From Rhina ancylostomus (lineage: Eukaryota), in assembly GCA_030265395.1 (NCBI GenBank), contig JARFYF010000068.1, positions 6,418,634 through 6,482,633 of the forward strand: a DNA stretch of 64,000 nt, written 5' to 3'. A program made the position numbers and the translations under genes. Below the pieces are notes generated by a model. It was not told the DNA's origin, ran no database searches, and saw only the letters and a program-made list of their open reading frames with translations. Shown here piece after piece: positions 1,196 to 62,189 of the stretch; positions within the stretch are counted from its first letter, which is position 1, and the number at the start of each line of letters is the position of its first letter.

Positions 1196-1222
1196 CATAT
1201 TGGTCCCTAGCTACTCTCGCAT
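1196..1222 (-). CDS. Microexon 42 (27 nt): (H/D)ARVARDQY
   Basis: T-run then caaattctag|ATGCGAGAGTAGCTAGGGACCAATATG|gtgagc; implies the gene continues past the left edge. Confidence 0.75.
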
Positions 1223-1569
1223 CTAGAATTTGAAAAAAAAAGTATGCCGTCACCGCCTCGCCAATGGAAAGTCGGCAGAATAGGATGTAAATCAAAGCTA
1301 GCCATAGTGCCAAAATGCGTCCGGCAGTTTTACTTTGACAATCACGTCGAGGTTCATTAAATGTAACTTCGCAAGCTTGACTCAACTTGATCGGGCGCAT
1401 GGAATAGGGTGGAAACAGTAAGGGAAACAGGCCTGATTGGCTGCACTTCAGTTGCAATTAGGGTTGATGTGACCGAAGCACTGATATTAAAGTTGAAACT
1501 ACTAGATAGGTAAACAACGTAAATTATCCTTTTAAACCTGATGAAAAATGATTGAATGCAAGGACACAA

Positions 1570-1935
1570 CATCATACGAAAATGAAACAGGAAAAGGGCA
1601 TTCAGATCCAGAGCTTTTCTGGCATTGAAGATAATGCTTCATCACCTTTACTTTCCTTCACTCGTGCACATTCCTTCCTTCTCTCAACAGCTAAAAATCC
1701 AACTCAACTTTCAATATAATGGGCGACCCAGCCCCCACGCAGGGCCTGGGTAGAGAACTCCAAATCATTATTGACTGGGTGAAGAAATCTCTCCTCTTCT
1801 GTCCCGAATGCTACTTCGAGAGTACTCCCTAGTTCCAGACACGCCAGGGAAGACGTCGACTCTGCAGCTACCTGGTAAACCACTTAAGAGTTATGTATGT
1901 TTCAGTAAGATCATTTCTCAGTTCTTCTGAACTCC
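1570..1935 (-). mobile_element. Old CR1-type LINE 3' fragment, apparently resuming at about 2500-2580
   Basis: Degenerate motifs (GGTAGAGAACTCCAAA, GAAGAAATCTCTCCTC, TAAGATCA...TTCTTCTGAACTCCA); interrupted by a younger LINE. Confidence 0.55.
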
Positions 1936-1939
1936 ATAC

Positions 1940-2497
1940 AATAGGAATGCGGGAGGTAAGTTGCGGTTATATACAACGTTGGTGATGCTACACTTGCGTA
2001 CAACTTTGGTCGTCCTGTTACAGGAAAGGTGTTATTAAACTCGAACGAGTGTAGAAAAGATTTACCAGGATGTTGCCTGGAGTTGGGGTCTAAGTTTCAA
2101 GGATAGGTTGCGTAGAGTATATTCCCTAGAATGGAGGAGATTGAGGGATGACCTCATGGAGGTATAAAAGATAATGAGGGGCATAGCCAAGGTGAAATCA
2201 CATTGTCTTTTTCCCTTGGAGGGGTGCTAAAACAAAAGGGCATGTTTAATATCCGAGGTGAGAGGCTTAAAACGGACGTCAGGGGCAGCTTCTTCACGCA
2301 AAGGGTGGTGCGTATTTGGAGTGAGCTGCCAGAAATAGTGGTTGCGGCGGGCCATCTAGATAAGTATATGTATTGGAGATGCTGAGAGGGCCATAGGCCA
2401 AATGCGGGCAGATGGGACAAGCTTCCTGGACAACACAGTCGTCATGGACGAATTGGGTCGAAGGGCCTGTTTCCGTGCTGTTTGACTCTATGACTCT
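1940..2497 (+). mobile_element. CR1/HER1 LINE 3' portion with (GACTCTAT)n tail
   Basis: Encodes RGSFFTQRVVRIWSELPE...HLDKYM; ends GAAGGGCCTGTTTCCGTGCTG-TTTGACTCTATGACTCT. Confidence 0.88.
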
Positions 2498-3283
2498 AAT
2501 ACTGGCCCATGCTGCTCAAATTACCTCATTTGATAGACTCGTCATCTGTTGAACTTTCTCTGCACTCTCTCCATCACAAATATGGGAATGAAGACAACTA
2601 TAATGCACATACGGTATCATCAGTCTGCTGTTTAATTTGGCAGAAACGTTTACATTTTAGCTTTGCTTCATAATGGCATTCAAAATAAGGAGCCAATCTA
2701 GGTGAAGACCAATGTCAAACAGAGCTGCCTAATTGTCAAACATTCTCCCTGCAATTTTTCACCAAATCTTCAACAAGCTTCCTAAAACAATTCTAATTCA
2801 TCTGTGAAACATAATTTTCATTTCATATATTACGCTGAATCTGTACAATCCTGCTATTAATTTCTAAGTATGTGACCAGAACATTCTTAATGACAGATTA
2901 TACGACTTCCGCCGTTGTTAACATCAGAATAATCGGTCTGCCGTTTCTGCCTTTTATGTCTTAAAAGTTGGCGCTGCAATTGCTGCCTTTCAATCTGTGA
3001 ACTGTTCGAGAACACTTTACATTTTGCAAGATGGCCGCCAGAGATAAATTATCTCCATAGTCATCTATTTGAAACTCTTGGGATACTGCTTATCTGTTCT
3101 TCAGGATTTAGCGTCTCCCAGTCGCATTAATTTCTCCAGCGCTAGATTTTTATTGATGAGAATCATGTCAGTTTAATATAAAATATAATACACAATTAAA
3201 CGTAAATTAATGCACATGGTGAATATTTCGATGCCCGAGTCCAAGCGTTGATGCATTCAATTAATTACAGAATTATTTATTTT

Positions 3284-3327
3284 CTAATTTATAATTTGTC
3301 TGCCCTGAAGTTTCGGGGATCCCATCA
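3284..3327 (-). CDS. Candidate alternative terminal exon: LMGSPKLQGRQIIN*
   Basis: ccttgttcattgttttag|TG ATG GGA ... AAT TAG, in phase with exon 41; minus-strand AATAAA at 3276-3281 and 3149-3154. Confidence 0.35.
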
Positions 3328-3600
3328 CTAAAACAATGAACAAGGCTTCTTCGGCAACCGTTCCCTGCAGTGAGTCAGTACTCGTACACACGATTCACAC
3401 TGTCTTGACAACTTTGCTCTGTTATCCTTCAAAGCAAAATAATAATTTGAGAAGCGTTTCCTTGTTTTTCTTATTTGATAGGATCAGTACTTGTTGATTC
3501 CATATTTGCATCGTTCGGATGCACTTTGAATTGAAGGTTATTTTTAACTGAACTGTTGCCACTTGAAAGTTGAAAGGTACTAAAACACACTATTCCTTAC

Positions 3601-3606
3601 GCGTTG
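3601..3606 (-). CDS. Microexon 41 (6 nt): AT
   Basis: tgctttttatttgtttctcattcag|CAACGC|gtaagg; 89-nt intron to exon 40. Confidence 0.6.
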
Positions 3607-3695
3607 CTGAATGAGAAACAAATAAAAAGCAGTAACATGTTATGGTTTGTTGTCCCTGTCTTGAAAGATCAAAACAATTTAAGCACATATTTTAC

Positions 3696-3719: not shown

Positions 3720-4094
3720 CTTCAAATGAAAAAAAAGGTAGAATAGCATCAAAATGATTATTCCATTTCGAAGCGTGGTCTTATTCAAGTTCTTAAGTAG
3801 GTTTGAATGAAACGCCAATATCCCAGAACTCCCCAGAAGCGCGGCGGGCTTTTCATGCAGAAGGCCCAGCACAAGATGAAGAGAAAGAAAGGAGACATAA
3901 ACGACTGCAGGTACTGGAATCTGACGTAAAAATTAAAAATGGCCGACGGAACACAGCAGGTCGAGAAGCATCTGTGCTGGGAGGGGGGAGGAAATGCTGC
4001 TTCGAATACATAGAATGCAATCTGTCTTATTCATCTACCATTCGCGGCATGGAACAAAGCTCCTCAAATATATTCAGGCCATTTGGTTACTTAC

Positions 4095-4121
4095 CACATT
4101 TCTCACGAAGCCTTTTAATTT
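4095..4121 (-). CDS. Microexon 39 (27 nt): EIKRLREKC
   Basis: cttttacaacctttctag|AAATTAAAAGGCTTCGTGAGAAATGTG|gtaagt; paralog of exon 15. Confidence 0.9.
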
Positions 4122-4917
4122 CTAGAAAGGTTGTAAAAGTTCAGTGTCGTGAGAAACAGTAAAACTCTGTTGTATTTTGTGATTAGGAAGTGCGTGGTGT
4201 CACCAGTAGCTGAACTGAACTAAGTCGACTCATATTCTTCAAAAGTGCAAAGGTGAAATATCCGAATCGCACCAATTGTACAAGTCCTGGTTTTCCATTA
4301 AGATAACGTTTGAAGAGGTTAAAGACAGGCCATGTATTCTGGCCGCTAAGGAAACGTGCCAAATAAACCAACGCTTTGGGGTGCTAAAATTATGGTGAGG
4401 TTCTCATCGCACATTTACACTTGACCACCAACAGAGATTGGAAAAACACTGTGAGCCAACAACTTATAATATTTTAAATAGATGCGGGACACTAAAGGAT
4501 GACTTTTCAAAACCACTGTATTGCTATCGGAAACGGGCGAATTTCGGTTGAGAAAAAGTTTTGCATTTTCGATGTTAATGGCAGTCTTAATTCACAGGGC
4601 AAATATGATGTATATAAAACACAGCTGGTGTGATTTTATCATTGAAACCTTCATATATGGATTTACGAAAACAAGTCTCAACTCATCCTTGAGCAGCGAG
4701 GTGCGGTATGTACGTCATCCTTCAGATATCTGCATGTCATTGAAAGCAGTATTGTGTATAGATTGTAGAATTTTGCATGGGTCAATAAGGAATATACGTT
4801 TTCTTAAACTAATCGCAGAGTAAAAAAGTGCATCTTCTTCCACATGTTCATAATTTGTGGCACTGACTCACATATATACTACAGAAGAATACCAGAATAT
4901 GTTTAAATATCTTTTAC

Positions 4918-4944
4918 CTTCATTCTTCAAACTAAGTAGTTCAG
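4918..4944 (-). CDS. Microexon 38 (27 nt): AELLSLKNE
   Basis: catgctttttttacacag|CTGAACTACTTAGTTTGAAGAATGAAG|gtaaaa. Confidence 0.9.
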
Positions 4945-5129
4945 CTGTGTAAAAAAAGCATGAATCAGAGCAGTATTAGGTCACTGGAATTAAGATTTGT
5001 TCGGTGATGTAGAGTGCTCGAACTACAAGTGTATAATTTGTTGAAGGTAAGCAACATTAATATAAAGCTGAAATTTGACATTCCTCTAACAGCTCAAACA
5101 TTTAGTAAACGTTTAAAGTGGATTTTTAC

Positions 5130-5165
5130 CAACATCTCTCTGAATGATTGTCAGTTTCTCAAGCT
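5130..5165 (-). CDS. Microexon 37 (36 nt): ELEKLTIIQRDV
   Basis: gaatttgtatcttgcag|AGCTTGAGAAACTGACAATCATTCAGAGAGATGTTG|gtaaaa; paralog of exons 13 and 17. Confidence 0.88.
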
Positions 5166-6561
5166 CTGCAAGATACAAATTCATATTGTCCTTCAAGTTG
5201 CGACCAATATCTGTCTGTTTGCCTTAGTAGCAATAATTAATGTACCCCAAAGACCTCTCAAAGAGGAATGCATTACTCCATCGTCACAGACAGTTCGCTG
5301 GAACTGCAGTTTGTAAATTGGGATTGCGCCGGAGTTCAGATGACCCGAGAGCTCTTACAAGCAAAAGTTAGCTTCTGTAATGGGCAAACAAGATGGGGAG
5401 AATTATGACTTTATGCTGAAGTGCCGCATGAATTTCCGATCTCCCCCCAGTGCATCACCATTGATTTGAACGGAGTTGCCCACACAAATTAATCTTTTTC
5501 TTTATTTCAAAGCATATTTAAGTGTGCAATAAATTAATCACTTCATTTCCCCTTAAATATACGTTGTCTCTTTCAAAAATATTTTGTTTTAGCAATTCAA
5601 TACTTCAACTGAAACTCATTTTCCCTACCAGCGACCTTCCAAGTAGTAAGAAAAGGTCTGTATCTACAATCACCTGCACGTGAGGAATCAAGACCCATAA
5701 TATTTGAGCTGATTTTATTTCCCTTCCTATTAGACGAATCAAGCAGGTGCAAATGAATTCAAAGCAAGAAAATTTAGAAGAAGACATCGAAGATCCATTG
5801 GCATGCTCCACTGACCTGCTGCCTCTGCAGCAAATGGGGAAAATTGGTCCAGTATCTGCTGTCTGGTTGATGATATTGTCTCAGTTAAGCGAAATAGCAA
5901 AATGCACGAAACAAATATGGGTAAAGCATCAAACGAGTTCAGTTGAAGCCTGTTAGCAGCAAGAATTAAACGGACAAAAAAGTTTATATCCTACGGAGAG
6001 CATTCTGGCTAAGAACTGGTGCTGCTGCGCGTACATCCAGTCACCTTCACGTCACAGGGAAGGTCTACAGAGTAAATGGATAACATGGTATTACATTGTC
6101 TAAAAAAGGAAACCTTGAAGTCATACAAAAATCAGATGTCCATCGTAGCAAGAAGGATGTATGTTCCATTTGATAAGNNNNNNNNNNNNNNNNNNNNNNN
6201 NNNNNNNNNNNNNNNNNNNNNNNNNNNNNNNNNNNNNNNNNNNNNNNNNNNNNNNNNNNNNNNNNNNNNNNNNNNNNTATGTTCCATTTGCTAAGCAAAT
6301 TTGAAAACAATTATGAATAATTTGATCGGTAAATGTTGGACAAAGTTGTTCTTCCATTTTTGTTCAATGAGAAACAAGAGGGAGAAATATGGTTTTGCAC
6401 TGATGGTTATGATTAACGAGTGCGCTCCTATAATAAAACCAGGTTAGAGATGACGATTGAAATATAATCCTGATGTGAATAATGGACAACAGCTGAACTC
6501 TCCAGGAGTTACTAGAAACTCACCTTGTCTCGGAAAGAGGAAATTCAGCCCGTCAGGTTCA

Positions 6562-6581
6562 CAGCGCCTCCTAGAGGGCGA
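6562..6581. promoter_or_regulatory. Candidate CTCF-binding site
   Basis: CAGCGCCTCCTAGAGGGCGA resembles the CTCF core GCGCCCCCTAGTGG in both orientations. Confidence 0.45.
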
Positions 6582-6928
6582 TCTCGTAATTTTAATTCAG
6601 CGATTCATCATTTGTCTTTGTTCTCGCAACCTACTCTCTCTCAGAGTTTCCCATCATATTCCCACTAATCCTTTTTGTTTAGAGTAGTAATTAAGGCGAA
6701 TGTTAGCCAATTATCTTAACATCGTAGGTCTCAAAGTGAAAGTGGTAACTCCGCATATATAGCATTTTAGGACAGGATCAAAGCAAGGCTCTTGGAATTG
6801 CGAGGTAGCAGCATTTACAACCGCACCTCTGTCGATCTGTATAAAGTAAGTGCATAATAAGACATGATGTGAGTATAAGATTAGAATTTGATTTTGGTAG
6901 AAGAGATAACAGGCATTATAAAAGTTAC

Positions 6929-6955
6929 CTGTCTTGGCTTCACGTATCAATGCTT
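6929..6955 (-). CDS. Microexon 36 (27 nt): EALIREAKT
   Basis: gtgttttttaattaatcatgcag|AAGCATTGATACGTGAAGCCAAGACAG|gtaact; paralog of exon 12. Confidence 0.88.
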
Positions 6956-7045
6956 CTGCATGATTAATTAAAAAACACAAAATCAATGTCAATTTTTAAA
7001 AATATACTGCATATATGCGCGTCTAGTTTAGAGGGTCCAGCACTT

Positions 7046-7095
7046 CATATATATACATATATATATATATAGATATATATGGATAGATAGATATA
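7046..7095. repeat. (TA)n/(GATA)n microsatellite
   Basis: Seen directly. Confidence 0.9.
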
Positions 7096-7749
7096 CAAGC
7101 ATATATTGATTTCGTTTTGCACTTTGAATCGAACTTTGTTTCCCAATTATTGTTCAGGTGTTCAGTCTGAGTTCACACTCGACATATTGGGTTTAATTAG
7201 TGCAGATAAGAATACTCTGAGTGAGATGGTTTTGGATTGTATCCAAAAGTCAATCAATATCCAATCATACAACAAAAATTGCACAAAGGGCAATAATTGA
7301 TGGTCAACAAATGAATAGCTACAATGCAGTTCTGATCATTATCAATTACAAATCCTTACTGTACTTCTCACAATCCTCTTACCGACTATATGGTGGACGT
7401 CTAGTTACTTTGGAAACAGAAATTTAATTGCGATCCTTTGGAAATGGGAATGTACTGGAGTACTTTTAGAAAGGAATTAGAAATAAAAGTAATTCCCAAC
7501 TAGAAATGTGAGGGTAATGGATGGATAAAACTATACGTTTAATTTATATGGTGTTCAAGAGATATGTCACCTAATTTCAAGCACCACAAGGAACTAATTA
7601 AATGGAGGAAATACTTATTTATTTGCATTGTTTATCAGATGATTTTCAAAGACACTTTTCACAAATTGGTGAAATTGCTTTGATTATATTTGTTTGCTCT
7701 GCATCAACGAATCGTAGCAATTAGTTGATTTTGATCTTTGTATTCTCTT

Positions 7750-9150
7750 TAGCAATGAGGGAGGTGCCAGAAGACAGCAGAATAGCAATGTTGTTCCTTT
7801 GTTAAAGACTGGCGACATGGGCTATCCATGAAATTATGGACGGTGAGCTTTACAGCAGTGATTGGGAATTTACTGGCGAAGACTCCTAGGGACAAGATTT
7901 GCTCGAATTTGGAAACGCATGTCTTTGTGTGGGGGAGGTCCTGTCTCAAAAATTGGACTGAGTTGTTTTGAAGAGATGACGAAGATGATTGACGAGGGTA
8001 GGCCAGGGGCTACTATACACATGGACTTTAGCATGGCATTTGACAAACCCCTCATGGTGGACTGGTCCAGAACATTGTCAGATGGAATTCACCGTCAGAC
8101 GGTAAGTTGGACACAAAATTAGTTTCGCCAAAGACAAAAGCTATTAGTGGTGGGCATATGTTTTTATGACTGAATTTCTGTGACCAATGGTGTTCCACAA
8201 GGATCTGGACTGCTCCTCTGCTGTTTGTAATATGAATACGAATAATTTGGACGACAATGTAGGTGGTCTGATGAGTAAGTTTGCAGACGATATGAAAATT
8301 GGTGGATTGCATAGTGTGGAAGATTTTCAAAGGATAGAGCAGGATACAGTTCAGTTGGAAATCTTGGTGAAGAAATGCAGAAGTTTAATCCGGAGAACGG
8401 TGCGATGGTTCATTTTGGGAGGTCAAATGCAAGAGGAAAGTGTACAGGAAATGGCAGAACCCTTAGGAGCATTGATTATACAGAGCCAGTTTGGGATACA
8501 GGACTTTAGCTCTCTGAATGTGGCAATAGAAGTGGATAGAGCGGTAAGGATTGCCTGCTGCACGCTTTCTGTCATCGGTCAGGCCATTCAGCATAAAAGT
8601 GGGCAGGCGCATTCAATGTAAAATTTGGCAAATCACATTGTAGCTGTCTAAAACTTTGGTCAGGCCACATTTAGAGTATTTATACAGTTCTTGTCGCACA
8701 CCAGAGGAAGAATGTGGAGAGAGGGCAGAGGATATTGCTTGGAGTGTGTTAGCTCGAAGGAGAGCTTGGACAAACTTGAATTGTTTTCTCTGCAGCGCTG
8801 AAGCGACTTGATAGAAGTATATAAAATTATCGAGGAAGGTGGATAGCAAGAGTCTTTTCCCCAGGGTGGAAATATCAAATACTAGAAAGCGAAGGTTTAA
8901 TGTGAGAAAGGGCAAGTTTAATGGAGATGTGGGAGGCAGGTTTTTACGGATGCAGTGGATGTGTCTGGGGCGCACAGCTGCAGATGAGGTGCTGGAAGCA
9001 GACATGGTAGCATTTTGACAGACATATGAACAGGCAGAGAGTTGACGGATACAGACCACGTGCAGACATGGGATTATTTAGACTGGCATCATTGTCGGCG
9101 CGGGCACAGTGGGCCGAATAGCCTGTTCTTCTGTTGTACTCTTCCATGTT
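7750..9150 (+). mobile_element. 5'-truncated, frameshifted CR1 LINE (RT domain to 3' UTR)
   Basis: Fragments FEEMTKMIDEGR...MDFSMAFDK and SKFADDMKIGG are CR1 reverse-transcriptase motifs; 3' end GGGCCGAATAGCCTGTT. Confidence 0.9.
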
Positions 9151-10389
9151 ATGATATCACTCCAAATTTCCAGCTTTTCAATATGAACAGGATATAATAT
9201 TTTTATTAATGGGACAATGCATTGACGTCTGGCTGCATAGCATTATAGAAATTTCCAGACCAACATTTCAAGACAAGTTATAACGCAGAATGCCTTTCGA
9301 ACGTTCCTGATGGCATCATGTGTAAAATTCTTCGATCTAGTTAGATCCTTAACCAAAATGTTTCTGGTGCTATATCCTTTACCCAGAATAAATACTGAAC
9401 ACAAAATGTTTGGAATACATATGGAAACCTTCTGAACACATCGTGTTCTAGTTGTGTTATTAATTTATTGCCCACTCATTACACATTGCCAACCTGCTAC
9501 TCGGTATTATAGCGCCATTATTTGGATCTATACAATTTGCAACATACTATCACATTAAGCATGAGCAATACAATATAGGACTTTCCGAATAAATTCGATG
9601 TATCATATGCATCGGAAAATATTTTACATTACCGGCGCTTCCTGAAAGACATTTTAACTGATTCAGCACGTCACGAAAAATCAATGAAATTATAGCTGGG
9701 GCTGTCATTCATTCCATTGATTTATTCCACAGGCCATACGCTAAATTCACTGGTCGGAATTGCTGGTTCCTTTCTTATTTCACCTGGACGGAGTGTTTGG
9801 CTCCGTAATTTTAAGCTTGATTAGACCCAGAAATTGATATACATGTCAGATAGATACTCGAGTTTGTTTATGGAAGAACCATTTTAGACTAGATGTAGAG
9901 GTCACGATGATAGTTTCTTGATTGTTATTGAAAATAGTAGTTTTATTATTCCAGGTCGCTTTACAGTTACTTGAATATGCATTCTCACAACGCCCTGGTG
10001 GTATTTAAACAATAAGTAAGGGATCTGGAACACACATTGACAATTTCGTTTCCAGATCGCCAATTTTTAATACTAGAAGAATCAATAAAATAAACATACA
10101 AATAAGGTAACTTTGAAGTAAGAGCTGACTTGGATGGGACCTCATTATACAAAAGAGAGGTGTGATAAAATGAAATATCCTGGTCCGAAATCAAATGATA
10201 AGCTTTTTTATATTTATTTCCAAGCATGTTATATTACTTAAAGTTAAAAAAAATCTGTACTTTGATCTAATGTCCCTGCTTACTCACCGTCATCTTTTGT
10301 ATGCGAGTCAAGTTCTACAAATCATGATTAATAAAGCAATATTAATACTATTAAACTCTTGCCACCATTGCTCCGAATGTTTCTCTACA

Positions 10390-10691
10390 TAGGTTTTCTA
10401 TGTTTCTATACATTGGTTTAAGGTGCTGGGGAGTAAATATTGGGAGAAGAGGAGATGTCAGGGGTACATCTTTTACTCAGAGAGTGGTGAGTGTGTGGAA
10501 TGGGCTGCCGGAAACGGTGGTGGAGGCGGATACGATAAGGTCGTTCAAGAGACTGTTAGATTGGTACATGGAGCTGAATGAAATAGAGCGTTATGTGTAA
10601 GCCTAGTAATTTCTAGGTTAGGGACATGTTCGGCACAGATTTGTGGGCCGGAGGGCCTGAATTGAGCTGTAGGTTTTCTATGTTTCTATGT
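10390..10691 (+). mobile_element. HER1-type LINE 3' end flanked by a perfect 20-bp direct repeat
   Basis: Encodes FTQRVVSVWNGLPE...FKRLLDWYM; TAGGTTTTCTATGTTTCTAT at 10390-10409 and 10670-10689. Confidence 0.88.
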
Positions 10692-10770
10692 AATTAGCTA
10701 AACGCGGAAATGTACGTTGTACTAAGATAACAGCAGAGAAAAACGAAGCCGTTATCATGAATGACATTAC

Positions 10771-10797
10771 CCTTCTCCTTCTGCTTCAGCTTTCGCT
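10771..10797 (-). CDS. Microexon 35 (27 nt): ERKLKQKEK
   Basis: attgtttttgcttaccag|AGCGAAAGCTGAAGCAGAAGGAGAAGG|gtaatg. Confidence 0.88.
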
Positions 10798-12183
10798 CTG
10801 GTAAGCAAAAACAATTGCAGTATTGTGATTATTTTACCAATGATGAAATTATTATTTGTGTTAGAAACAAGTCGCTGAATTCTACACCAACGTCTGTTTC
10901 CCTGCGTTGATCTTGTATTAACTGGGCTATCTAGATCCGAAATACTTTCTATATGTACTGCGTGTTCCAATACATGCCACTTCCACTGAAGACAGACATG
11001 AAGTGCTGGATGTTTAAATCGCGTTATTATCCCTTGGTAGTAACTTTTTCAACAAAAAAATATGAAAACAAACGAAATGAGGGCAGTCTTTGTAAAGGAG
11101 GACAGGTCTCTGGTCCTTCCACTTGCATGAAAGGATGGAACCTTTTCGGAGATCCGCTCAGAATACTTAATTTGATTTATTTTTCTAATATCCGGCGAGT
11201 AATGTTTAAAGTACGATTCATGAGGATGAACTTCAGCACTCCTATTTCAGTTCATTACTTGCGAGATAACAAAAACATATCCGTCGCCTATTTTTAATAT
11301 CATGGCTTGGGATTTTTCTCACCGCTCTTTGTATTGAGATGCTACGAATAAAATGATTCTTGTCAGTTTGGATATATACATATTTTTAAAGGCGGTATGT
11401 TTGTATTTTGAAATGATGTCTGTACTGTTGATGCAGAGAGCTTGAGGGGGATATGGAGTTGCTTATCAATTGCAAACTGAGTGGAATCGTATGTCTGGGG
11501 ATAGAGCAACGTCCAATATTAAACATCATTAAAGGGAACGTAAAGGAATAAAATACCGAAATTTTAAGAGCTGATTGACATAGTAACGTTTTAAAGTTAC
11601 GCTGCATGAGCAAAAGTTCAGCAGTCCATCTTTGAATGGACCATATTTGCTTTGGTCGGTTAAAGTATGTTGTCTGATGTAATATAGTGGAAATATTATG
11701 CCTTTGCCCGCATACATTGTTTGCCTTAATGACTGTTAGAATATCATTGGCAATTGGCCATTTAATCTACCTGGAGCAGAGACAAAATAAAACAGACTGG
11801 AAGGATTCTAACGAAAGCGCAATTTTTCACGTTGATGGATGACAGTGAATATATTGTAAGGATCTGCACAAATTTTATTAGCAGCAATTGTGTCGCACAA
11901 TGAATATGTGTTAAAGCATATTGCTGTTATATATGCTGATCTGTGCTTTGGCAGGATATCAACTACTTTCATTGAATTTTACTTTCCCTAAGGTTTGTGC
12001 AACTTATTGTACAATTTTTGACACATTTTAATAAGAAAGGATTACATTAACTTTTCAGCATAAGAACATGCCATGAAACAAATTACACGCATTCTTTAGC
12101 ATTTCTTGAGCCTAACATTCTAGTTGTGCACCAATGTGTGCACCACATTGCACCAGAGAGTTTTTGCTCATCTCTTTCCTTAC

Positions 12184-12219
12184 CACATTCCTGGAGTTGG
12201 CTTGTTAGGTTTTCTACCT
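12184..12219 (-). CDS. Microexon 34 (36 nt): EVENLTSQLQEC
   Basis: gctgatttctgtttgcag|AGGTAGAAAACCTAACAAGCCAACTCCAGGAATGTG|gtaagg. Confidence 0.9.
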
Positions 12220-13829
12220 CTGCAAACAGAAATCAGCAGCAACGAAATATTTTTTCATGTGCGTTACTATCTCAGATTTTTGCTTTTATGAACATGAGAT
12301 GTTTATGAGTGAAACCATCCATTGTTATTTTAAGAGAGTATGAAGATTTTTGATCATTTTATGTGTTCCATGCATTGAACATGCACTTAGCGCATTTCTC
12401 CTGGTACATATTGGAGAAAGCGAAGGAGAATTAAAAATACATATGCAGACTAACTGTATCCCACAATGTATTTGCACGTGGTATGTGTTCGGAATGCTTT
12501 TTCGTATAATAAATGAAAAAAATGAACATCTCATCAGACAGGTTTAAAGCAGACAGCCAGGGTGTGGATGCTACTCCACAAGATGAACTACTACAATTTC
12601 ATCGGGCCACGAAATAGAAAAAAAATGGCGATTGAACGTGCAGCATGTTAAACTTTGCTGTTATTATGAATTAATTTTGTCCAGTGGTAATAGTTTCTTT
12701 TTTTCGCTTTGGAGTGCACGGAGATAACAGGCTACTTCTTTAACAGGCCGGTTGGATTAAATTTTTTTTGTGGCTATGCTATTGTTATGGATATCGCATT
12801 ACAATCGGACTACAACACAACAAATGGAAGAGAGCAAATGAAAATAAGGTATTTATAAAACAAAGTGAACACGTCAGACATTCTATTTACCGGTTAATAA
12901 TTTGACAATGTACTTCTCAATGCATTAATTATCTTAAGCATACATAAAGCAGGAAATAAAGAAAACATATTTTTGCACGTTCAACAACTTGTCGTGGCTT
13001 AACGGAGGAGAAACCAAAGGCTATGCTTAACAAAAACAAAGCTTCATTCGACTCTCCACTTTCAGCACTGGGAGGAACCGACAGCACGAATACATCGCCA
13101 ATATTTTATCCTGCCGGCGATTATTTACGTTTACATGTGCTGCATTTAGATATTCCACAATGTGTAAACCTATAACAGTTATTTATTCTGAAGTATACAA
13201 GAATTAAAATAAGTTATCACCTGATATCTTTGCCTTGAGTTTCAACACTGCACCAGAGAGAATTGCATCTTAATGATAGCAGTGCAATGCTGCTTTTAAA
13301 ACGAGCGACAAATATGACAAATAGCACTGGGTAGTCAATTCAAGTTGCAACCCGAGTTAACATTGTTTTGAAAGCATTCAGGGATAGTCACATAGTTGAA
13401 GGCAAAGTATATTATTAAGCTACCATTTGTAGAGATCGAGGCAGGTGTGAAAGAGAAGTGTGTGATATTCTTTCTCGGCACAGCTTGGGTTTTCTCTGCA
13501 GTTCTGATCACCACATTAGAAGACAATGGACGATTACACTCTAAACTGTACAGAAGACATTGCCAACACTGAAAAGAAAATCCAGAAGGTAAGTTTGCAT
13601 TGATAGAGATTGCTTTCTCTGGACGATGGGAAGCCGAAGGGAGCGATAATTTGTCGATATAATGTGATGCTGAATATAGAGTATTCAGAATGACATGATC
13701 ATAAACAGATGGCCGGATATTTCATGTAATGGCTAAACCGTTTTGAGAGGAGATGATCTTTTTTTAACACTCAACAGGCTAGCATATACTCAATGAATAA
13801 TAGGGCCCAGTGGAGGGAAAAGAGGCTGT

Positions 13830-14480
13830 GGTATGGATACCCAAGGATGCATTAAGGTCGAAGCACAAATATATAAATAGGAATATCTGCCTCAGTATCC
13901 CAGGCATAGAATTTACGAGTAGGGAAGCTGTGGTATGACCATATAAAATATGCCACAGCTGGAATTCCATCGTGCAGTTCTGGTCACCACGAAATAGGAA
14001 GAATGTGATGGCATTGGACGAGCGGTAGAGGAGATTCACCAGGATGATATCAGGAATGCAGCTTTTCAGCGACGAGGTGAACCTAAATTGGCTGAATATC
14101 CTTTCATTGGAGCAAAGAAAGCTGATGTGGAAGTTGATTGGGGGGTTCAACAGTATGAAGGGCATACATAGGTCTGAGAGCAAGAACATTTTCCCAAAGC
14201 AGAGGCGGGAAGGGAGTGTAAGGTAAGGCGAAGAAATTTAGGAGGGGATTTGGAGAATGATGTTTTCCAGCCAGAGGGTGGTTGAACCGAAGCAGACGGC
14301 CCGAGGAGGTGACGGATGCATGTATTCTTACAACATATAAAAGGCTTTTATATGAAAAGTTGAAACACCATGTTTTAGAAAGCTTCGGTTTGAGTGCTGG
14401 AACATAGGATTAGAATAGATATGGCCAATGGCCGGCATAGAGGCAGTGTTCCTATTTACAACCTTTATGACTCTATGATG
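13830..14480 (+). mobile_element. Degenerate CR1 LINE 3' portion
   Basis: GTGCAGTTCTGGTCACCA...AGGAGATTCACCAGGATG; tail TATGACTCTATGA. Confidence 0.8.
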
Positions 14481-14655
14481 CTGTGTAGAAAATTAAAAAA
14501 AGCAGGAAATTGCTGCTTCCGATCTAATATGTTTGTTTGAAGTCTACACAACGAGCAGCAAATCAGATGCAAACGCCTCCATTATTCGTCATAACTGCGT
14601 ATTCGTCATAGTCTAACATTTCTGTTTAATTCCATAAGTTCTTTGTATTACTCAC

Positions 14656-14667
14656 CACAGCTGGCAT
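14656..14667 (-). CDS. Microexon 33 (12 nt): DASC
   Basis: ctgttgtattttgttcatcag|ATGCCAGCTGTG|gtgagt. Confidence 0.82.
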
Positions 14668-14796
14668 CTGATGAACAAAATACAACAGTTCATCAGTGGT
14701 ATAGCATATAATTTAGCACTGCACTGAATTGATCTGAGTGAAAGAAGGACATAACATATTGTCGAAGATGAACTGAATCGAAACTGTCGGATTTAC

Positions 14797-14823
14797 CTGC
14801 TTCCCTCTCACGTAGCTTATCCT
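14797..14823 (-). CDS. Microexon 32 (27 nt): EDKLREREA
   Basis: cttatatgtttcttcag|AGGATAAGCTACGTGAGAGGGAAGCAG|gtaaat. Confidence 0.9.
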
Positions 14824-17110
14824 CTGAAGAAACATATAAGTGAGAAAACATGTTTGGTTCTGAGATATCTTTCACAAATTAATTTTTCGTTTTCCGGTGC
14901 CTGGGTAACATTCTGGCAAGGCTGCTTGCAAATCCTGTATTGGAAGCATTTTGGAGTCATAACAAGCGATGGGGAATTCGGGGGACACCTGTTCACTGTC
15001 CATTCCAAAACATTAAACAGTAAAGTATCGAGACCCATAGCTCTTGAATTGACGAGCTTCAGGCGGACTTGCTTTTTCGTATGATCATCATGTGGGTGCT
15101 GCCGATAATGTTGCATATTTTGCCAAGCTGCACGGAAAGGCAAGATCTAATGGATGTGGACAGGCTGATAATTAGAATTCATTGTTTAGTTATTATTTAT
15201 TTGTGGAGAACTGCAGATTGCAAAACCAGTTGTGACCTTTCCCAAGTTGCTTTGTTCTGTTTCTTTATCGCTTCTTTCATTTTATGAAAATATTGAGAAT
15301 TACCAAGGGTTTGCCCATTTTGCTCATTATCCCTCGTCTAAATTTGATAGATTCGTCGAATTGTTGGTTTGATTATCTTATTTTATTCAGGCTCTAAGCG
15401 GCTGCGGTAGCAAGGATTTACACTTATAGTATTTTGTGCTGGCATACAACTGCGTCCATACAACAACAACACTGAAAGAATGAATTCCAAGGAATCAAAG
15501 CAACAGTGGCGCATATTTCCTCCATACCACACGCACATCAAGCTCACCACTATTTTGTGACTGCGCAGGCTCAAACGACCTCAAAGGTTCCCTGCCGCAG
15601 GTCACTGACAGAGTGGTTCTTGTGATAGTGCGATGAATCATACGGGTCTTCCAACAACCGCGTTAGTGGACTCTTGTTGTTGAAGGATTTTTTAATGATC
15701 TCTGAAATTTGATGATGATATGCTAATTTTGAAAATAAAACTAACAAGTAACTAAAATAAATAAAGCTAACTTTAAAAAGACAAACATACTTGAAGCACA
15801 TTTAACCGATGCCAATTAATTGAAATATATGTGGTGAAAAAAGATCAAAAACAAATAAGAAAGGCATTCATTTTTTAAGAAGTTAACGGTCCACGACCCC
15901 ATTTAAATGAACAGAGCCAAATAGATAGCCAAACAGATATTCGGCAAACTTGGCTGACATAATTTGAGGTGCCTCGATATGAAGTGCATCCAGCTTCTCG
16001 ATAAACACGATGAGGAACTGCTGCTGGGTCATGCAGGAACTGGGGGATAGAGCGAGATTTGAAGTGCACCAGTATTTTACTGCTATGTGCTCCAAGTCTC
16101 TGTTCTGCAGTGCATACTCGCATAAATCATTGACCCGTAAGTCACAGCCAGTTGAAGGTTGTTTTCCTGACACAAAACAGCAAAAAGAACCCCCAGTTTT
16201 GAACATTGTAGTTAACCCTCACGTTAGTAAGTAATTAAGGCGAGGAATCGAACAAGGGATAATAAAACAAATCTTATGTAGTTCTTGGACTATAATGGAT
16301 ATTGGAAGTGTGATATTTCTGCCTCCAGTTTAAATATGTTGTCTTCAAAGTACAACATATTTATCTCTGCGCTTAACAACGTAACTTCTGAAAATCTTTA
16401 CACAGTCCTCCCTGAGTTTTTTGTAACGAAATGATATTTAGATGTTGGTCATGGGTTGTCGTCGTCGTTGGAAGTACAGTCTTGCTCACCCCTGATTGCC
16501 ACTTAATCGAGGAAAAAGTTATATGACTACCACGCTTTCTTCCTCAGCAGGCAACAGCTCTAACTTTCCTGATAAATACATTTTTAAAACATTTTATACA
16601 GCCAACACATCCTTCCGTTTTGCGATGAAGCAGAAATATGTAATGTTTACCATTTTATGCAGCTGTTCCATGACGTTCCTACTCTTAAATTCTACACCTT
16701 TAGCAGCAAGAGCAAATGATCACAGATTTATTTAAAACCACCTTATTTACTGGTATCATCCGGTGAATATGTATTCCAGCTTGGCTGCATTCCTTTTCAT
16801 TTCTCAATTCTACACGATTTTTAAAAATGTTATTCCCTCTACTCCATGACACCAAATGCATTATTCCATTCTTCTTCGAATTCAAGTTATTTTGTGCTTT
16901 TCTATGTTCCTGCAGCCTCCTTTTTTTTGTCAGTTTTTAACCACACCAGTAATTGTTCACCTACAATTGCCATGACTACTGTGTTTATCTGCCAACAGGA
17001 TTATATAGGTGTACTGGCAAGCTTTGTTAATAGAAATTGCGCCAAAGACGGAAACGCAGTTATTATAATGCATCCACATAATATATAAAAAACTTCATTG
17101 ATTTCATTAC

Positions 17111-17146
17111 CTAAATCTTGAAGTGCTTTTTTCAGTTTTTTGGCTT
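17111..17146 (-). CDS. Microexon 31 (36 nt): EAKKLKKALQDL
   Basis: attatttcaatttctttag|AAGCCAAAAAACTGAAAAAAGCACTTCAAGATTTAG|gtaatg. Confidence 0.9.
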
Positions 17147-17739
17147 CTAAAGAAATTGAAATAATCGCTTGAGCTACAAAGCTTCTAATTGTACACAGAC
17201 ATTTTTAGATATATGACCTATTTTGGATCAAATTTAACCGGCATTGTATTCAGGATTTCAAAAACTGCATTTTGTGCACCACCATTAGATGTCCATATTG
17301 CCTGCAGAAATCGCTTCCTCACAATACTTAAGTAGTGGATTTATTTCATTTACAATTGTCGTATTACAGCCCTTTTTCAAAGTAAACGTTACAAGAGAAA
17401 AGCCCCTGTTTTGAATGGGGTGCAATGGGGTAAACCCGTATGTTTTCCCGAAAATTAAATGTATTTTGCAATGATCGTTATTCATTCACACCCCATCGGA
17501 AATCAATAACGAGCCTAAGAAAAGAAGGGAACATGACTTCTGTACTGAAATCTAGTTTCTGACAGTTTAAGAGCAACATGATTAAATTTTACTAACAACG
17601 ATGTCATACATTTCAGGGTGTGAAATATCGTACCTGTCCCATTTCAACCGAAAACATTGTGCATTGATTATTTTAAAAATTCTGTTCAGAATGACTAAAG
17701 CAATTTTAGGTATAGTAGCGTCCTCTAACATATATTTAC

Positions 17740-17766
17740 CTTCATCCTTTTTGGTCATCTCTCCTT
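17740..17766 (-). CDS. Microexon 30 (27 nt): EGEMTKKDE
   Basis: gaaattattttacag|AAGGAGAGATGACCAAAAAGGATGAAG|gtaaat. Confidence 0.88.
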
Positions 17767-18277
17767 CTGTAAAATAATTTCATGTAATTCTTGAAGGAAC
17801 AGTGGCAACTGTACAAAATTCATTTCCTAAATCATTCCGGGTACCGTAATGTACAACTTATGATATTAACTACACAATTTAGTGTCGCAAAGAACCATGA
17901 CGACCTTGCACTAATGTAATGGCGGGGTCGGTTTGAGCAGCCAGACGCTCTACTCCTGCTCCTTTTTCCTTGAGCACATGCAATATTTTGAGCACAAAAA
18001 TGGTACATAAAATCTATGTCTGCAAGTAATAACCTAAAGAAACAGCCAAAGTATTTAATGGAAATGTCATACGTCAATATGAGCAATGGGAAATAAATGT
18101 TAAAAATAAATTGAAAAGCAACAGCAATATTGTGACCAATGCAGCACATAATCGACTGGACTTTCAGCGAAAATTATAAATAAAAAATTATGAGCCGGGT
18201 GAGGCTACTTGGCCCTCAAGATTGCTCTACTACTTAATTTGCTCACAACTGATCTGATTATAACCCGGACTGCATTT

Positions 18278-18700
18278 AGAATCAGAATCAGGTTCATTGT
18301 CACTGATATAGGTCGTGAGATTTGTTGTTTTGCAGCATAACACGTCGAATGTCAGTGCAAGACATAAAAATTGCCATAAATTGCAAAAATAAATAAATCG
18401 TGCAAAAGAGGAATAACCAGGTAGTGTTCATGGGTTCATCACCTTTCAGAAATCTGATGGCGGAGGTGAAGACGATGTTCCTATCACGCTGAGTGTGGAT
18501 CGTCAGGCTCCTGTCCCTTCTCCCCCATGATAGTAATGAGAAGAGGGCATATCCCAGATGGTGAGGGTCCTTAATGATGGATGTCGCCTTCTTGAGGCAC
18601 TGCCTTTTGAAGACGTCGTTGATGGTGGGGACCATTGTGCCCGTGATGGATCTATCTCAGTCGACAACCCTCTGAGAGCCTCCATACCAGACGGCGATGC
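18278..18700 (-). mobile_element. Rex1/Babar-type LINE 3' end, nested in an older CR1 fragment (about 18190-19050)
   Basis: Encodes CLKKATSIIKDPHHLGYALFSLL...SAIRFL; (ATTCTG)n tail at 18278-18290. Confidence 0.8.
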
Positions 18701-19062
18701 AATGTGCAGGGTCGAACGATTCCCTTCTGCCCCGATACTATTCAACCCGCACGATTATCAATAATCTCTTTACCGTTGCATAAAAAATGTTCAGAGACTT
18801 TGCTTCCACTGTCCTTCTAGGAAAAGAACATGAAGACTCACGAAGCTCCGAGGGCAGCGTGAGGAACGCCTCATCTCTTCCATAAAAGTGACACCTAATG
18901 GTAATTCTCGTGCAAGAAGAAATATCCTCTTTACACTGAAACTGTCAAGATCCCAAAGAATCATACATGTTTTAATCAAGTGACCCTCACTTTTTTGAAC
19001 ACAAGTAGATACAACATTTCCTCATGAGATATGCTGCGCATTCCAGGTATTAATATGGGTAT

Positions 19063-19113
19063 TAATCTCATGTCAAAGATAGAAGGTGTAATCTCATGTC
19101 AAAGATAGAAGGT
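19063..19113. repeat. Exact 25-bp tandem duplication
   Basis: TAATCTCATGTCAAAGATAGAAGGT twice, separated by one G. Confidence 0.9.
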
Positions 19114-19750: not shown

Positions 19751-19786
19751 CTGCATCACTCAGCATCCTTCGTAATTTTTCCAATT
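19751..19786 (-). CDS. Microexon 29 (36 nt): ELEKLRRMLSDA
   Basis: gtttacttgcatttcag|AATTGGAAAAATTACGAAGGATGCTGAGTGATGCAG|gtaaaa; paralog of exon 9. Confidence 0.9.
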
Positions 19787-20295: not shown

Positions 20296-20307
20296 CTTCT
20301 TCTTTGC
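20296..20307 (-). CDS. Microexon 28 (12 nt): GKEE
   Basis: ctgcacttttgtaattcag|GCAAAGAAGAAG|gtaagt (consensus donor). Confidence 0.8.
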
Positions 20308-20666: not shown

Positions 20667-20693
20667 CTGTATCTTGCCGACGGAGTAGTTCCT
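20667..20693 (-). CDS. Microexon 27 (27 nt): EELLRRQDT
   Basis: gttgcctcttaaatctcag|AGGAACTACTCCGTCGGCAAGATACAG|gtaaaa. Confidence 0.88.
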
Positions 20694-29987: not shown

Positions 29988-30023
29988 GTGCATTCTTCAG
30001 GGCAGACTTGAGAGCTTCAGCCT
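29988..30023 (-). CDS. Microexon 22 (36 nt): EAEALKSALKNA
   Basis: gtttccctttgtcatttcag|AGGCTGAAGCTCTCAAGTCTGCCCTGAAGAATGCAC|gtaaga. Confidence 0.9.
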
Positions 30024-31550: not shown

Positions 31551-31577
31551 CTGATTTCACTGCGTGTAGATCCTTCT
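31551..31577 (-). CDS. Microexon 21 (27 nt, GC donor): EKDLHAVKS
   Basis: ttttcatatttcatattttcag|AGAAGGATCTACACGCAGTGAAATCAG|gcatgt; very strong acceptor; only the GC donor gives a 3n length. Confidence 0.68.
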
Positions 31578-46494: not shown

Positions 46495-46530
46495 CAGCAT
46501 CCTGCAGACTTTTTCTAAGTTTTTCTATTT
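46495..46530 (-). CDS. Microexon 9 (36 nt): EIEKLRKSLQDA
   Basis: ccattgttggatttcag|AAATAGAAAAACTTAGAAAAAGTCTGCAGGATGCTG|gtgaga. Confidence 0.9.
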
Positions 46531-46816: not shown

Positions 46817-46843
46817 CTTGATCTTTCCTTCGTAAGTCACTCG
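46817..46843 (-). CDS. Microexon 8 (27 nt): ASDLRRKDQ
   Basis: aatgtactcttttacag|CGAGTGACTTACGAAGGAAAGATCAAG|gtgagt. Confidence 0.9.
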
Positions 46844-48766: not shown

Positions 48767-48793
48767 CCAAACCTCAAAGAAGGAAATTCAGTT
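48767..48793 (-). pseudogene. 27-nt exon with in-frame stop (ELNFLL*GL): poison or dead microexon
   Basis: attttgttattcttatgcag|AACTGAATTTCCTTCTTTGAGGTTTGG|gtaagt; shares CTT CTT at codons 5-6 with exon 4. Confidence 0.55.
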
Positions 48794-53985: not shown

Positions 53986-54692
53986 GAAAACCTTCGGCAT
54001 AATGTAGAACAAATCAACCTGCTTGATTGACTCTCACTCCGGCACAACATGCATTTATTCCTTTCAGCACTTTTGACTTGTGTGTGCACATGCGCGCTAT
54101 CGGTTAAATAGAATCTGTTCTACTGTGACAAGAGCACTCAAAACAGTGACCTCCAGTATTATGAAGGACACCGGACACAGGTGCGTAATATATGACGCGC
54201 AAGTCTCCGCCCAAGTTAAAATACAATCCCGTCTTTACAAAAACATTACTGCTTCCTGATTTCCCTTAGCTCTAGATGCTGAAACTCTCTATCAAACTAC
54301 ATTATGGGGTTGTTTTCATCATAAGGACAGCAGAAAATAACGCAAGATGATCAAGGGCAGTTGCTGATAGACACTTCATGATAATCATTATAATGAACCT
54401 GTAACCAATGAAATAATAAAATAATACTGATTGTCCTAGAGAAGAAGCTAGATAGGATACGTTTTCCAAAGTATTCATCCAATGAGGGAGACGTTAAATT
54501 TGCCTATCGATATTGATGTTTCCCCGAGTCTTTACTGTGCAACAAGTAACTTGCCTCAACTTAGCAATGGTGCTAACGAGGTGCATACGTTTCTTTCTGA
54601 GTGTCTGTTTTGAAGCTGGGAGATAAAGTGAACAATAACAACAACCTACCAGATTTGTCCCAAAGGCAACTCAAAATAAACGAAAGACTTAC

Positions 54693-57005: not shown

Positions 57006-57032
57006 TGCTCGCCTGAAGAAGCTTCTTGCATT
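57006..57032 (-). CDS. Microexon 4 (27 nt): ECKKLLQAS
   Basis: attatatactcattag|AATGCAAGAAGCTTCTTCAGGCGAGCA|gtgagt. Confidence 0.8.
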
Positions 57033-60000: not shown

Positions 60001-60660
60001 TGAAACATATGCTTTGTTTTCCTCTTTACAGAAGCAGCCCGATACCTGTGCTTCCAAAATTCTAGTTTAATATCTGATATTTTAAAGTATTGTACATGGC
60101 AGTATTATTGAAACATGGCAGTTAACAGTTAATCACTTCCCTGAAATAATGAAAGCATTTTAATGTAAAGGCTTTGAGCATTTTATCCAGATATCAGCTC
60201 GTTATTTAATGAAGAACATGTATGCCCTTTGGTATAATTGTGCAGGTTCATTGGATTGGCCATCGATTAGAGTTTGTTTTAACTAGCAATCTAACTGGTT
60301 CAATCCGACAGTGGAAATTATGAAAATTTTTCCTATTGGATGGCGAAGTTTTGATTTACGGTACACTCTTCTGGAATCCTTTGCGCCTCTGGAGGAGATT
60401 TTTTTCTATGAAACGATGTAATAAAAATAGTCCAAAGAACCTAACAGCAGGGCACTGCCCTTCATATATTTCTTACGGTAAGAACTAATGTTTGTAACAA
60501 CGTCCCAATTTAATTTTCTGCGCAATCCCACAGGTGCATACAATAATACGGGAGTCAGCCCCTGCAGGTAAACATATTGATCTTTGGTAACATGATATGC
60601 CCGTGTGCTAGTGGTACCAAGGTTTCCAAGACGTTTGTATCAAAGTCATTAGAACTGTAC

Positions 60661-60678
60661 CTGTCGATTTCGAATCCG
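60661..60678 (-). CDS. Microexon 3 (18 nt): ADSKST
   Basis: ttttctcttttgtttaatcatag|CGGATTCGAAATCGACAG|gtacag; resembles the DSKENCAT exon. Confidence 0.75.
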
Positions 60679-61052
60679 CTATGATTAAACAAAAGAGAAA
60701 AAAATTATAATCATGTACGTTGGGAAAAAATGTAACATATATTATTGATAAGTATAATTTCTTTAAGTTTTTTATTGTCGACAAGTATTTCCTTCTTGCC
60801 TTTGGCAGAAGGGAAACTGTTGTGTAAACTATATTGTATGTAGTTTGGAAACACCTAAAACGAATCTTTTCATCAACCATTCCCCATGGTAGTGTTTGCT
60901 TTTAAGACGCCGATGGAACTTGGAGACGCCTATCCTCATGGACCTTTCAAATTCCTGATCAAAAACAAAACATCTGGAATCTGGTGTCTAAATTGGGAAA
61001 ACCGATCCACAGATCAGTCAAGCAACAGAATCATATCTTCCAGTCATCATGC

Positions 61053-61325
61053 AGGCACGGTAATGTAGCGGTTAGCGTAACGCTATTACTGTGTCAGCGA
61101 CCCGGGTTCAATTCCGGAGTAAACTGTAAAACGTTTGTACCTTCTCCCCGTATCTGCGTGGGTTTCTTCCGGGTGATCTGGTTTCGTTGCACATTCCAAA
61201 GACGTACGGATTAGGAAATAGTGGCACAGAAAGCGTGGCGGGCTGCCCCCAGAATACTCTACGAAAAGATGCATTTCACTGCGTGTTTCGATGTACATGT
61301 GACTAATAAAGAGATCTTATATATC
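61053..61325 (+). mobile_element. tRNA-derived V-SINE (HE1-like)
   Basis: A-box-like TAATGTAGCGG, B-box GGTTCAATTCC, V-domain GTGGGTTTCTTCCGGGTG...CATTCCAAAGACGTACGG, 3' AATAAA tail. Confidence 0.85.
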
Positions 61326-61459
61326 TGGTGTAACATATCTGGTTTACCAATCAGGAACAATCTTATACAGAGAGTACAGCTGATGAAGAAGTTGCGCATT
61401 CAAGAAGTGAAAACGCTTGCTGTAAAAAGGAGGCAGTTCCTTTCTAAAACAAATCTCAC

Positions 61460-61495
61460 CACTTTCTTTAATCTTTGACTGCAGTGTGATAATTT
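61460..61495 (-). CDS. Microexon 2 (36 nt): EIITLQSKIKES
   Basis: ctacttctccttctag|AAATTATCACACTGCAGTCAAAGATTAAAGAAAGTG|gtgaga. Confidence 0.88.
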
Positions 61496-62162
61496 CTAGA
61501 AGGAGAAGTAGTTTCCAACAATGGGTGTTAGCGTATATTAGTTATCTTTAAGGAGCTTATTTTTAAATATCCATGAAAAAGTACCCCACCACCATCTGAA
61601 TGTACGAAACTAGCAAAGCACATTAAAACATTCGGCCATACAAAATCCAAAGTTCTGCATTGAACACTTGAAATGTCTTCCAAATCATTGACAATTGTGA
61701 AGAAAATAATTCGTGGAAGAGCATTTTCAAAAACAAAATGGGTACGTCAAGGAGAAAATGCAAGTCAAGCCTTGATTGTGTTATTTTGAATTCAAAGCAG
61801 TCATTCCTTCAGTGATGCTTGTTATGTAATTGCAATGATTTACTTATTATCAGTATTAAACAGGGATAAAATATATAAAGTTACATTAATTTCACTGTCA
61901 TGTTACAAAGTTACTATGTTAGCCCAACACAGAAACAACAAAATAAACCTTCAAAATATATTTAAGGCCTTAATATCTCTGGAATGGAATCATAATGGCA
62001 GGTTTCTGAGTTTCCGAAGGACAAATGGAGACAAATTATTAATCTACTAAATGCAACTTTATAATGCTTTCTGAAGATTACTATCAATCACCTGGATGAA
62101 TCTTTCCCTTTTCAGTATATAATATGTTACTATTAAAATAGTTATAATGCTGGACTATTTAC

Positions 62163-62189
62163 CTGCATTTTTTAACAAGATCTGTCGCA
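62163..62189 (-). CDS. Microexon 1 (27 nt, phase 1-1): xRQILLKNA
   Basis: ttatttgactttcag|TGCGACAGATCTTGTTAAAAAATGCAG|gtaaat; paralogous to exon 56384-56410. Confidence 0.85.

Follow-up and report, generated by a model that had tools for sequence, protein, structure and literature searches.

A frame-safe micro-exon array of Rhina ancylostomus as part of a probable giant gene for a predicted coiled-coil rod

The stretch of 64,000 nucleotides (nt) analysed here, hereafter the window, lies at positions 6,418,634-6,482,633 of contig JARFYF010000068.1 (C68) of the batoid Rhina ancylostomus, and its minus strand carries an array of very short exons, all symmetric in phase 1-1. In this study, we describe the window as part of what is likely to be a giant batoid gene (unit B), which would encode a predicted coiled-coil rod and whose exons would be spliced mostly in order. 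Exon symmetry, the alternation of exon classes, a heptad register running across the exons, a family link to B30.2 genes and the lack of a transmembrane stretch are read directly from the DNA. An earlier note on the window had proposed that its exons are compatible any-to-any, so that no skipping pattern can create a frameshift or a stop and combinatorial rod-length isoforms could arise. This interpretation is partly supported: judging from the sequence, exon skipping in the predicted gene would nearly always keep the frame, and free mix-and-match splicing is unlikely. All exons referred to below were predicted from splice signals and coding pattern, and positions outside 1-64,000 are window coordinates extended along the contig (+ or -).

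Results

Micro-exons of the window

The array and the exons referred to below are as follows.

62189..1196, minus strand: 44 predicted phase 1-1 micro-exons from the splice scans, the central-to-3' part of unit B, in which classes A27, B27 and C36 alternate
46817..46843, minus strand: example of a class A exon, 27 nt, with a hydrophobic residue at position 4 and Lys at 7
46495..46530, minus strand: example of a class C exon, 36 nt, with hydrophobic residues at 2, 5 and 9
4095..4121, minus strand: example of a class B exon, 27 nt, with hydrophobic residues at 2 and 5, like C36 and three residues shorter
57006..57032, minus strand: A-ending exon with a weak generic acceptor
54589..54615, minus strand: C-ending exon, a weak call (score 8.0)
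29988..30023, minus strand: C-ending 36-nt exon of the catalogue
31551..31577, minus strand: 27-nt exon with a GC donor, from the trained-model catalogue
48767..48793, minus strand: 27-nt exon-like element found by scan and kept outside the catalogue, whose splice sites are strong and whose phase-1 frame contains a stop

The array is invisible to tandem and direct repeat finders and emerges from splice signals. An untrained splice-site scan of the window (score >5) returned 21 candidates of 27 nt on the minus strand versus 4 on the plus strand, with a length divisible by three in 50 of 81 minus and 18 of 43 plus candidates. Over the whole array span (score >8), 135 of 172 minus-strand candidates had such a length and phase 1 was open in 129 of these 135, the corresponding plus-strand figures being 22 of 71 and 11 of 22. 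A splice model that was trained and applied on the same exons, with the plus strand as its control and a preference for G at position -1, gave 253 exons in 551 kb on the minus strand at a score of at least 10, a single one on the plus strand and none in 183 kb of flank. When the last exon base and the exon length were ignored in a third scan (score >10), class 1-1 accounted for 171 of 226 minus-strand hits versus 3 of 38 plus-strand hits; the remaining phase classes stayed near plus-strand levels, many of them being alternative readings of the same exons. The one sequencing run aligned over positions 4,000-23,900 of the window is genomic, as its contigs pass through introns and the joints listed fall in repeats, and it has no bearing on expression.

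In the window, the catalogue holds 27 exons of 27 nt, 11 of 36 nt, two of 24 nt, two of 12 nt, one of 21 nt and one of 18 nt. Four of them have low scores (6.6-8.0), and 12 N gaps may conceal others. The symmetry of every exon, which the earlier note had described for 42 exons, is thus borne out for 44, and its tally of end bases (39 of 42 in G, the others A, C and C, none in T) holds on recounting: 41 of 44 end in G, one in A (57006), two in C (54589 and 29988) and none in T. Likewise, the reported majority of AA or AG starts, which yield Glu at the junction, is seen: 29 of 44 exons start in this way, and Glu is at 27 of 43 junctions. Two side observations concern the same region. Alternative in-frame acceptors of the NAGNAG-like kind lie 3-6 nt inside the exons at 46524, 17763, 17143 and 6952 (minus strand), and the stop-bearing element at 48767..48793 is possibly a poison exon, a decayed exon or a product of chance.

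Exon order and heptad register

Three main classes of exon are recognized by the placing of their hydrophobic residues: A27 (position 4), C36 (2, 5 and 9) and B27 (2 and 5). Neither 27 nor 36 nt is a multiple of the heptad length, and among 273 exons a single one has a length divisible by 21 nt, whereas an A27 and a C36 exon together make 63 nt, that is, three heptads. The classes alternate accordingly: A to B/C transitions, in either direction, number 141 against 86.7 +/- 6.6 in random orders, which reached a maximum of 109 in 5,000. Among classified exons (7 of 44 in the window and 50 of 242 in unit B are unclassified and omitted from these tests), 28 of 29 native window junctions obey the alternation, as compared with 5 of 29 after single skips and 22 of 29 after two-exon skips; for unit B the figures are 118 of 151, 48 of 152 and 95 of 149, respectively.

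The predicted product reflects this order. Its hydrophobic periodicity peaks at 3.50 residues, and in the window the heptad signal amounts to 54.3 in the native order versus 17.3 +/- 5.7 when exons are shuffled, with none of 2,000 shuffles reaching the native value. Over unit B, the power at period 3.5 is 54.0 versus 23.3 +/- 3.8 (none of 500 shuffles). As the native signal is so far above the shuffled one, exon order matters, which shows selection on the ordered product. With units A (see below) and B pooled, simulated skipping of 20% lowers the power from 55 to 38.5 when single exons are dropped and to 48.2 when 63-nt pairs are dropped. The catalogued sequence reads as a modular, acidic (net charge -74) and proline-poor coiled coil, and divergence between paralogous exon pairs is highest at third codon positions (0.38 versus 0.25 and 0.17).

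At the protein level, therefore, the exons are not interchangeable, with alternating classes and almost no exon of whole-heptad length, and the any-to-any compatibility put forward earlier does not extend to the product. Of the possible skip runs in the window, the heptad count survives in 114 of 903 and the less strict class alternation in 314 of 637; the useful splice space is therefore at most half of the any-to-any one, single skips being the worst case.

Frame safety and the growth of the gene

The claim that a junction codon can never be a stop holds within the window, where none of the 946 ordered exon pairs creates one, and fails in unit B as a whole, where 86 of 24,976 pairs do. All of these trace to one exon.

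+180,059 to +180,024, minus strand: strong T-ending 36-nt exon of unit B, with an acceptor of 9.0 and a good donor

The neighbour of this exon starts with AT, which gives a harmless Tyr, and joining it to downstream exons would produce a stop with 86 of 120, among them 29 of the 44 window exons. Since it suits its own neighbour and not most of the exons further downstream, we count it in favour of ordered splicing.

Symmetric phase is what permits tandem exon duplication, and G at -1 is the donor consensus. In unit B, 167 of 224 exons (about 75%) start with AA, AG or GA, so that T would be barred at most exon ends even if splicing were constitutive. Where T is tolerated it ends one of 64 exons (P 0.03 at an assumed background of 8%, 0.16 at 5%), a rarity to be read with the detector's own preference for G. 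Frame safety requires no selection for skipping; it came about incidentally as the gene expanded, and the frame-safe property that headed the earlier note is ordinary for genes built by exon duplication.

Gene extent on C68

The micro-exon array spans +504 kb to -44 kb and is divided by one exon.

+453,183, minus strand: diverged B30.2 exon of unit A, with a phase-1 acceptor, cut by an assembly gap

In this gap-cut exon, the PRY (E 2e-4) and SPRY (E 2e-3) matches are both below the Pfam cut-offs; its best match among solved structures is BTN3A1 (E 1.7e-14), further solved matches being TRIM7, TRIM21 and TRIM58. A single domain-free gene of 555 kb was rejected once this internal exon turned up, as it splits the span into units A and B. 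Unit A, the upstream one, comprises about 31 micro-exons and the B30.2 exon. Its first exon ends at +509,283 and is probably non-coding, and the next, at +504,246, carries an ATG that leads straight into the rod.

Unit B, which contains the window, extends from about +440 kb to -46 kb (about 490 kb) and holds 224 exons when a score of 10 is required and 258 when 6 suffices, with 2,153-2,448 predicted residues. With at least 224 micro-exons it would presumably rank among the most exon-rich vertebrate genes. Near its presumed start lie exons resembling untranslated regions at +442.4 and +439.6 kb, a micro-exon-free stretch of 15 kb and an assembly gap of 2.85 kb, and its probable terminal exon, at -46,142, is short and carries a stop and ATTAAA. 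Close to that end, from -651 to -30,382, young block duplications are seen, with exon identities of 78-93%.

No B30.2 domain was found 3' of unit B, either by Pfam in 58 of 68 open reading frames (ORFs) or by tblastn with two family B30.2 queries, four gaps of at most 100 N remaining there. Genome-wide PRY and SPRY searches are also silent at this end, which is weak evidence because they missed the exon at +453,183. Immunoglobulin (Ig), RING, B-box and SPRY domains were sought in 143 of the 173 minus-strand ORFs of at least 100 amino acids (aa) and none was found, two hits looking repeat-derived. Neither the start of unit A nor the catalogued exons show a signal peptide, and the maximum 19-residue hydropathy of the catalogued exons, 0.98, indicates no transmembrane stretch in them (N gaps lie outside this test). 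With an alignment of 59 exon-based rows, a weak homolog search scored 7,999 proteins (71-2000 aa) and gave no hit at E <= 1, and a further search with the same alignment, also weak, returned one unrelated low-complexity hit.

Relation to B30.2 genes and a second array

Searching the genome with the class A motif, the one search on which the paralog count rests, gave eight hits: seven in the C68 array and one on another contig, C53. There, a second array of the same exon types was found (32 exons in 90 kb sampled, none on the plus strand), which extends over 36.22-36.70 Mb at the least and whose 5' end was not found. A B30.2 exon (SPRY E 2.2e-15), which holds an assembly gap between near-identical repeats, is found on the strand of the array, some 20 kb to the 3' side of its last sampled micro-exon, and probably belongs to this array, a link drawn across 20 kb that are mostly unsampled. 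The median best exon identity is 63% between C53 and C68 and 64% among C68 exons, so the family is old. As unit A leads to a B30.2 exon and the C53 array probably does so too, although none was found after unit B, we assign this type of exon to a B30.2 family of batoids. We found no account of a giant micro-exon gene family in the literature covered, which leaves out most subscription papers.

Upstream of the C53 array lies a further gene.

C53 36,830,564-36,855,850, upstream of the C53 array: EHD-like GTPase with a transmembrane segment, ortholog of si:dkey-98f17.5, a separate gene

Its fusion to the array was considered and rejected, as the gene aligns to the last residue of a 449-aa ortholog and no micro-exon occurs in the next 20 kb (4.3 kb of them N). 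A gene on C53 is 94-96% identical to batoid orthologs.

CpG-rich domains

The window (CpG observed/expected ratio, o/e, 0.70) is covered by a domain that keeps its CpG.

-52 kb to +511 kb, no strand: domain of about 560 kb without the usual CpG depletion

Its CpG o/e is about 0.7 at a GC content of 0.38. Per 20-kb bin, the ratio is 0.63-0.75 in all bins of the array, 0.16-0.29 upstream and 0.43-0.49 downstream, and the edge at about +511 kb is sharp. In twelve stretches sampled elsewhere the ratio was 0.14-0.64, and the six of them with GC of at most 0.42 had 0.14-0.29. Among repeat copies that the domain shares with the upstream flank, we counted 284 cases of CpG kept inside and decayed outside versus 51 of the reverse (GpC control, 212 versus 201); for the downstream flank the counts were 132 versus 74 (control, 107 versus 88). 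This pattern suggests long-term low germline methylation and weakly points to germline expression of the array gene.

The C53 array has a CpG o/e of 0.5-0.8 within a domain from about 36.20 to 36.856 Mb. The EHD-like GTPase gene falls within this domain too, and a further stretch rich in CpG is found beyond it, so the link between CpG retention and the array genes is not exclusive.

C53 37,004,446-37,005,099, plus strand: single-exon frame resembling a G protein-coupled receptor, which we take to be GPR139-like, in the other CpG-rich stretch

Neighbourhood on C68

On its 3' side the array is followed by nurim, whose sequence is 98% identical to that of Pristis pectinata. Upstream are two genes with RRM and CCHC hits, which we take to be RBM4-like, and a V-set exon that is presumably CD2/SLAM-like. 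Genome-wide, 51 of 92 PRY matches fall on C68. A neighbourhood resembling the MHC (major histocompatibility complex), as well as linkage to it, is only suggested by these genes. The main text of PMC10751288 mentions neither nurim nor RBM4.

Discussion

All together, these observations allow us to propose a model of how the gene arose and what it makes. The rod would have been built by repeated tandem duplication of a two-exon phase-1 module (27 + 36 nt) ahead of a B30.2 exon, which unit B would have lost or would bypass. At a coiled-coil rise of 0.15 nm per residue, its product would be a dimeric, soluble rod about 320-365 nm long, with exons spliced mostly in order; any skipping that is tolerated would drop alternating pairs or exchange a B for a C exon. 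Unit B is probably expressed in the germ line, since its gene body escaped CpG decay. As to its role, we tentatively suggest, by analogy, a cytoplasmic structural or spacer rod that might act like the soluble tail of chicken BG proteins, perhaps pairing with B30.2-bearing paralogs.

Several points weigh against this reading. No ATG was located for unit B, whose span includes 40.5 kb of N that may conceal a domain or the limit of a gene. The exon classes were defined by eye once the exons were known, though on their sequence only and without regard to neighbours, and of the 151 classified junctions of unit B, 33 depart from the alternation, whether through missed exons, gaps or alternatives. 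The register under full inclusion demonstrates selection for the full form, beside which skipped forms may still exist. Finally, the functional step draws on analogy.

Among the alternatives, regulated splicing constrained by the same grammar might be the main function, with tissues dropping A+C or A+B pairs or picking one of adjacent same-class exons, and the internal B30.2 exon might be an alternative last exon that separates short from long isoforms of one 555-kb gene. We regard this as unlikely. It would agree with the alternation being kept after 22 of 29 skips of two exons in the window, with the phase-1 acceptor of the B30.2 exon, with the missing ATG exon and with the single CpG-rich domain over both units; the UTR-like exons at +442.4 and +439.6 kb and the 15-kb stretch free of micro-exons suggest, however, a separate start for unit B. 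Near-identical adjacent exons in the order C, C, A, A at +253,429, +251,559, +250,142 and +249,139 (identities 92% and 96%) would also suit it, but they adjoin assembly gaps and could be mutually exclusive exons, a recent duplication or an assembly artefact. Quite unlikely in our estimation is the more ambitious proposal of a batoid family of 0.5-Mb B30.2-derived genes, each with hundreds of 27/36-nt exons, in germline-hypomethylated domains, in which the length of a molecular ruler, up to about 350 nm, is set by a two-class splice code (pairs dropped, B swapped for C, an early B30.2 exon taken as the last). If true, a long form without B30.2 would parallel the split between BG genes and butyrophilins.

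Free any-to-any skipping, with a combinatorial repertoire like that of schistosome micro-exon genes (MEGs), is improbable. The near-absence of stops among exon pairs speaks for it, as do the slight rarity of T ends even where T is tolerated and the richness of C68 in B30.2 matches, as expected of an immune region; yet most skip runs upset the heptad count and about half the class alternation, a T-ending exon does exist in unit B, and with neither a signal peptide nor a transmembrane stretch found the product would not meet antibodies as MEG proteins do. The lowest probability, a very slight one, goes to the array not being translated as one giant protein, either because it is a relic that decays or is silent or because it comprises several smaller genes. 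The lack of a detected B30.2 after unit B, the stop-bearing element at 48793 and long exon-free stretches, such as 10.7 kb without N from +293.8 to +283.1 kb, would speak for this, but phase 1 is open in nearly all candidates of a length divisible by three from a scan that had no stop filter (129 of 135) and the register is intact over old, diverged exons; moreover, neither the start exon nor the terminal exon recurs inside the span, and no second B30.2 was found there.

Returning to the ordered rod as the preferred reading, the locus is unusual and well suited to testing whether micro-exon skipping tracks coiled-coil register. Moreover, escape from CpG decay over half a megabase at two paralogous loci contrasts with the somatic gene bodies and repeats of the elephant shark, which are hypermethylated according to the available text of PMC5437953, and predicts germline expression.

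Comparison with known systems

Symmetric micro-exons have been described in several systems. Schistosome MEG exons are short and symmetric and encode small, mostly secreted proteins whose exon skipping was shown by cDNA (PMC8293314 and PMC4015677, in their available text). The ray gene resembles them in a coding region made mostly of symmetric exons of at most 36 nt, and it differs in a huge product, predicted to be a cytosolic rod, with no signal peptide found and no known homology. Tropoelastin, with all borders in phase 1:1, alternating exon types and documented cassette splicing (PMC12554196, available part), is a precedent for frame-safe cassette exons; unlike the ray product, a predicted helix in register, it is secreted and disordered, so that exon order is cheap.

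Butyrophilin and TRIM-type genes share with unit A, and probably with the C53 array, a phase-1 PRY-SPRY last exon that follows coiled-coil exons. They differ in that neither Ig or transmembrane nor RING or B-box regions were found in the ray genes, whose rod is about ten times longer, and in that unit B has no detected B30.2.

The closest parallel is offered by chicken BG genes, of the butyrophilin family, in which 13-36 tail exons of 21 (sometimes 24) nt, each encoding one heptad of a cytoplasmic coiled coil and with the first codon split 1+2, follow Ig-V and transmembrane exons, and whose soluble tail ('zipper protein') acts in gut cells by displacing tropomyosin and controlling actin-myosin (PMC5938342 and PMC4046983, available parts). 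The BG analogy drawn in the earlier note gains from the present data, as the relatives of the array lead to B30.2 exons, and loses as regards splicing, since the alternative forms described in the available text of PMC5938342 arise by intron read-through and not by combinatorial skipping. Many phase-1 micro-exons for a coiled coil, and in unit B kinship to B30.2 genes without a B30.2 of its own, are common to both systems; the ray gene departs from BG in its 27/36-nt pairs, which share the phase and not the 21-nt single-heptad length, in its at least 224 exons and in that no Ig or transmembrane region was found. The locus departs from the BG group (no transmembrane stretch found, no 21-nt exons), from TRIM (no RING or B-box found) and from MEGs (product not predicted to be secreted); by analogy it would function like a BG tail while descending with B30.2 genes, and it ties BG-style tails to B30.2 genes in cartilaginous fish.

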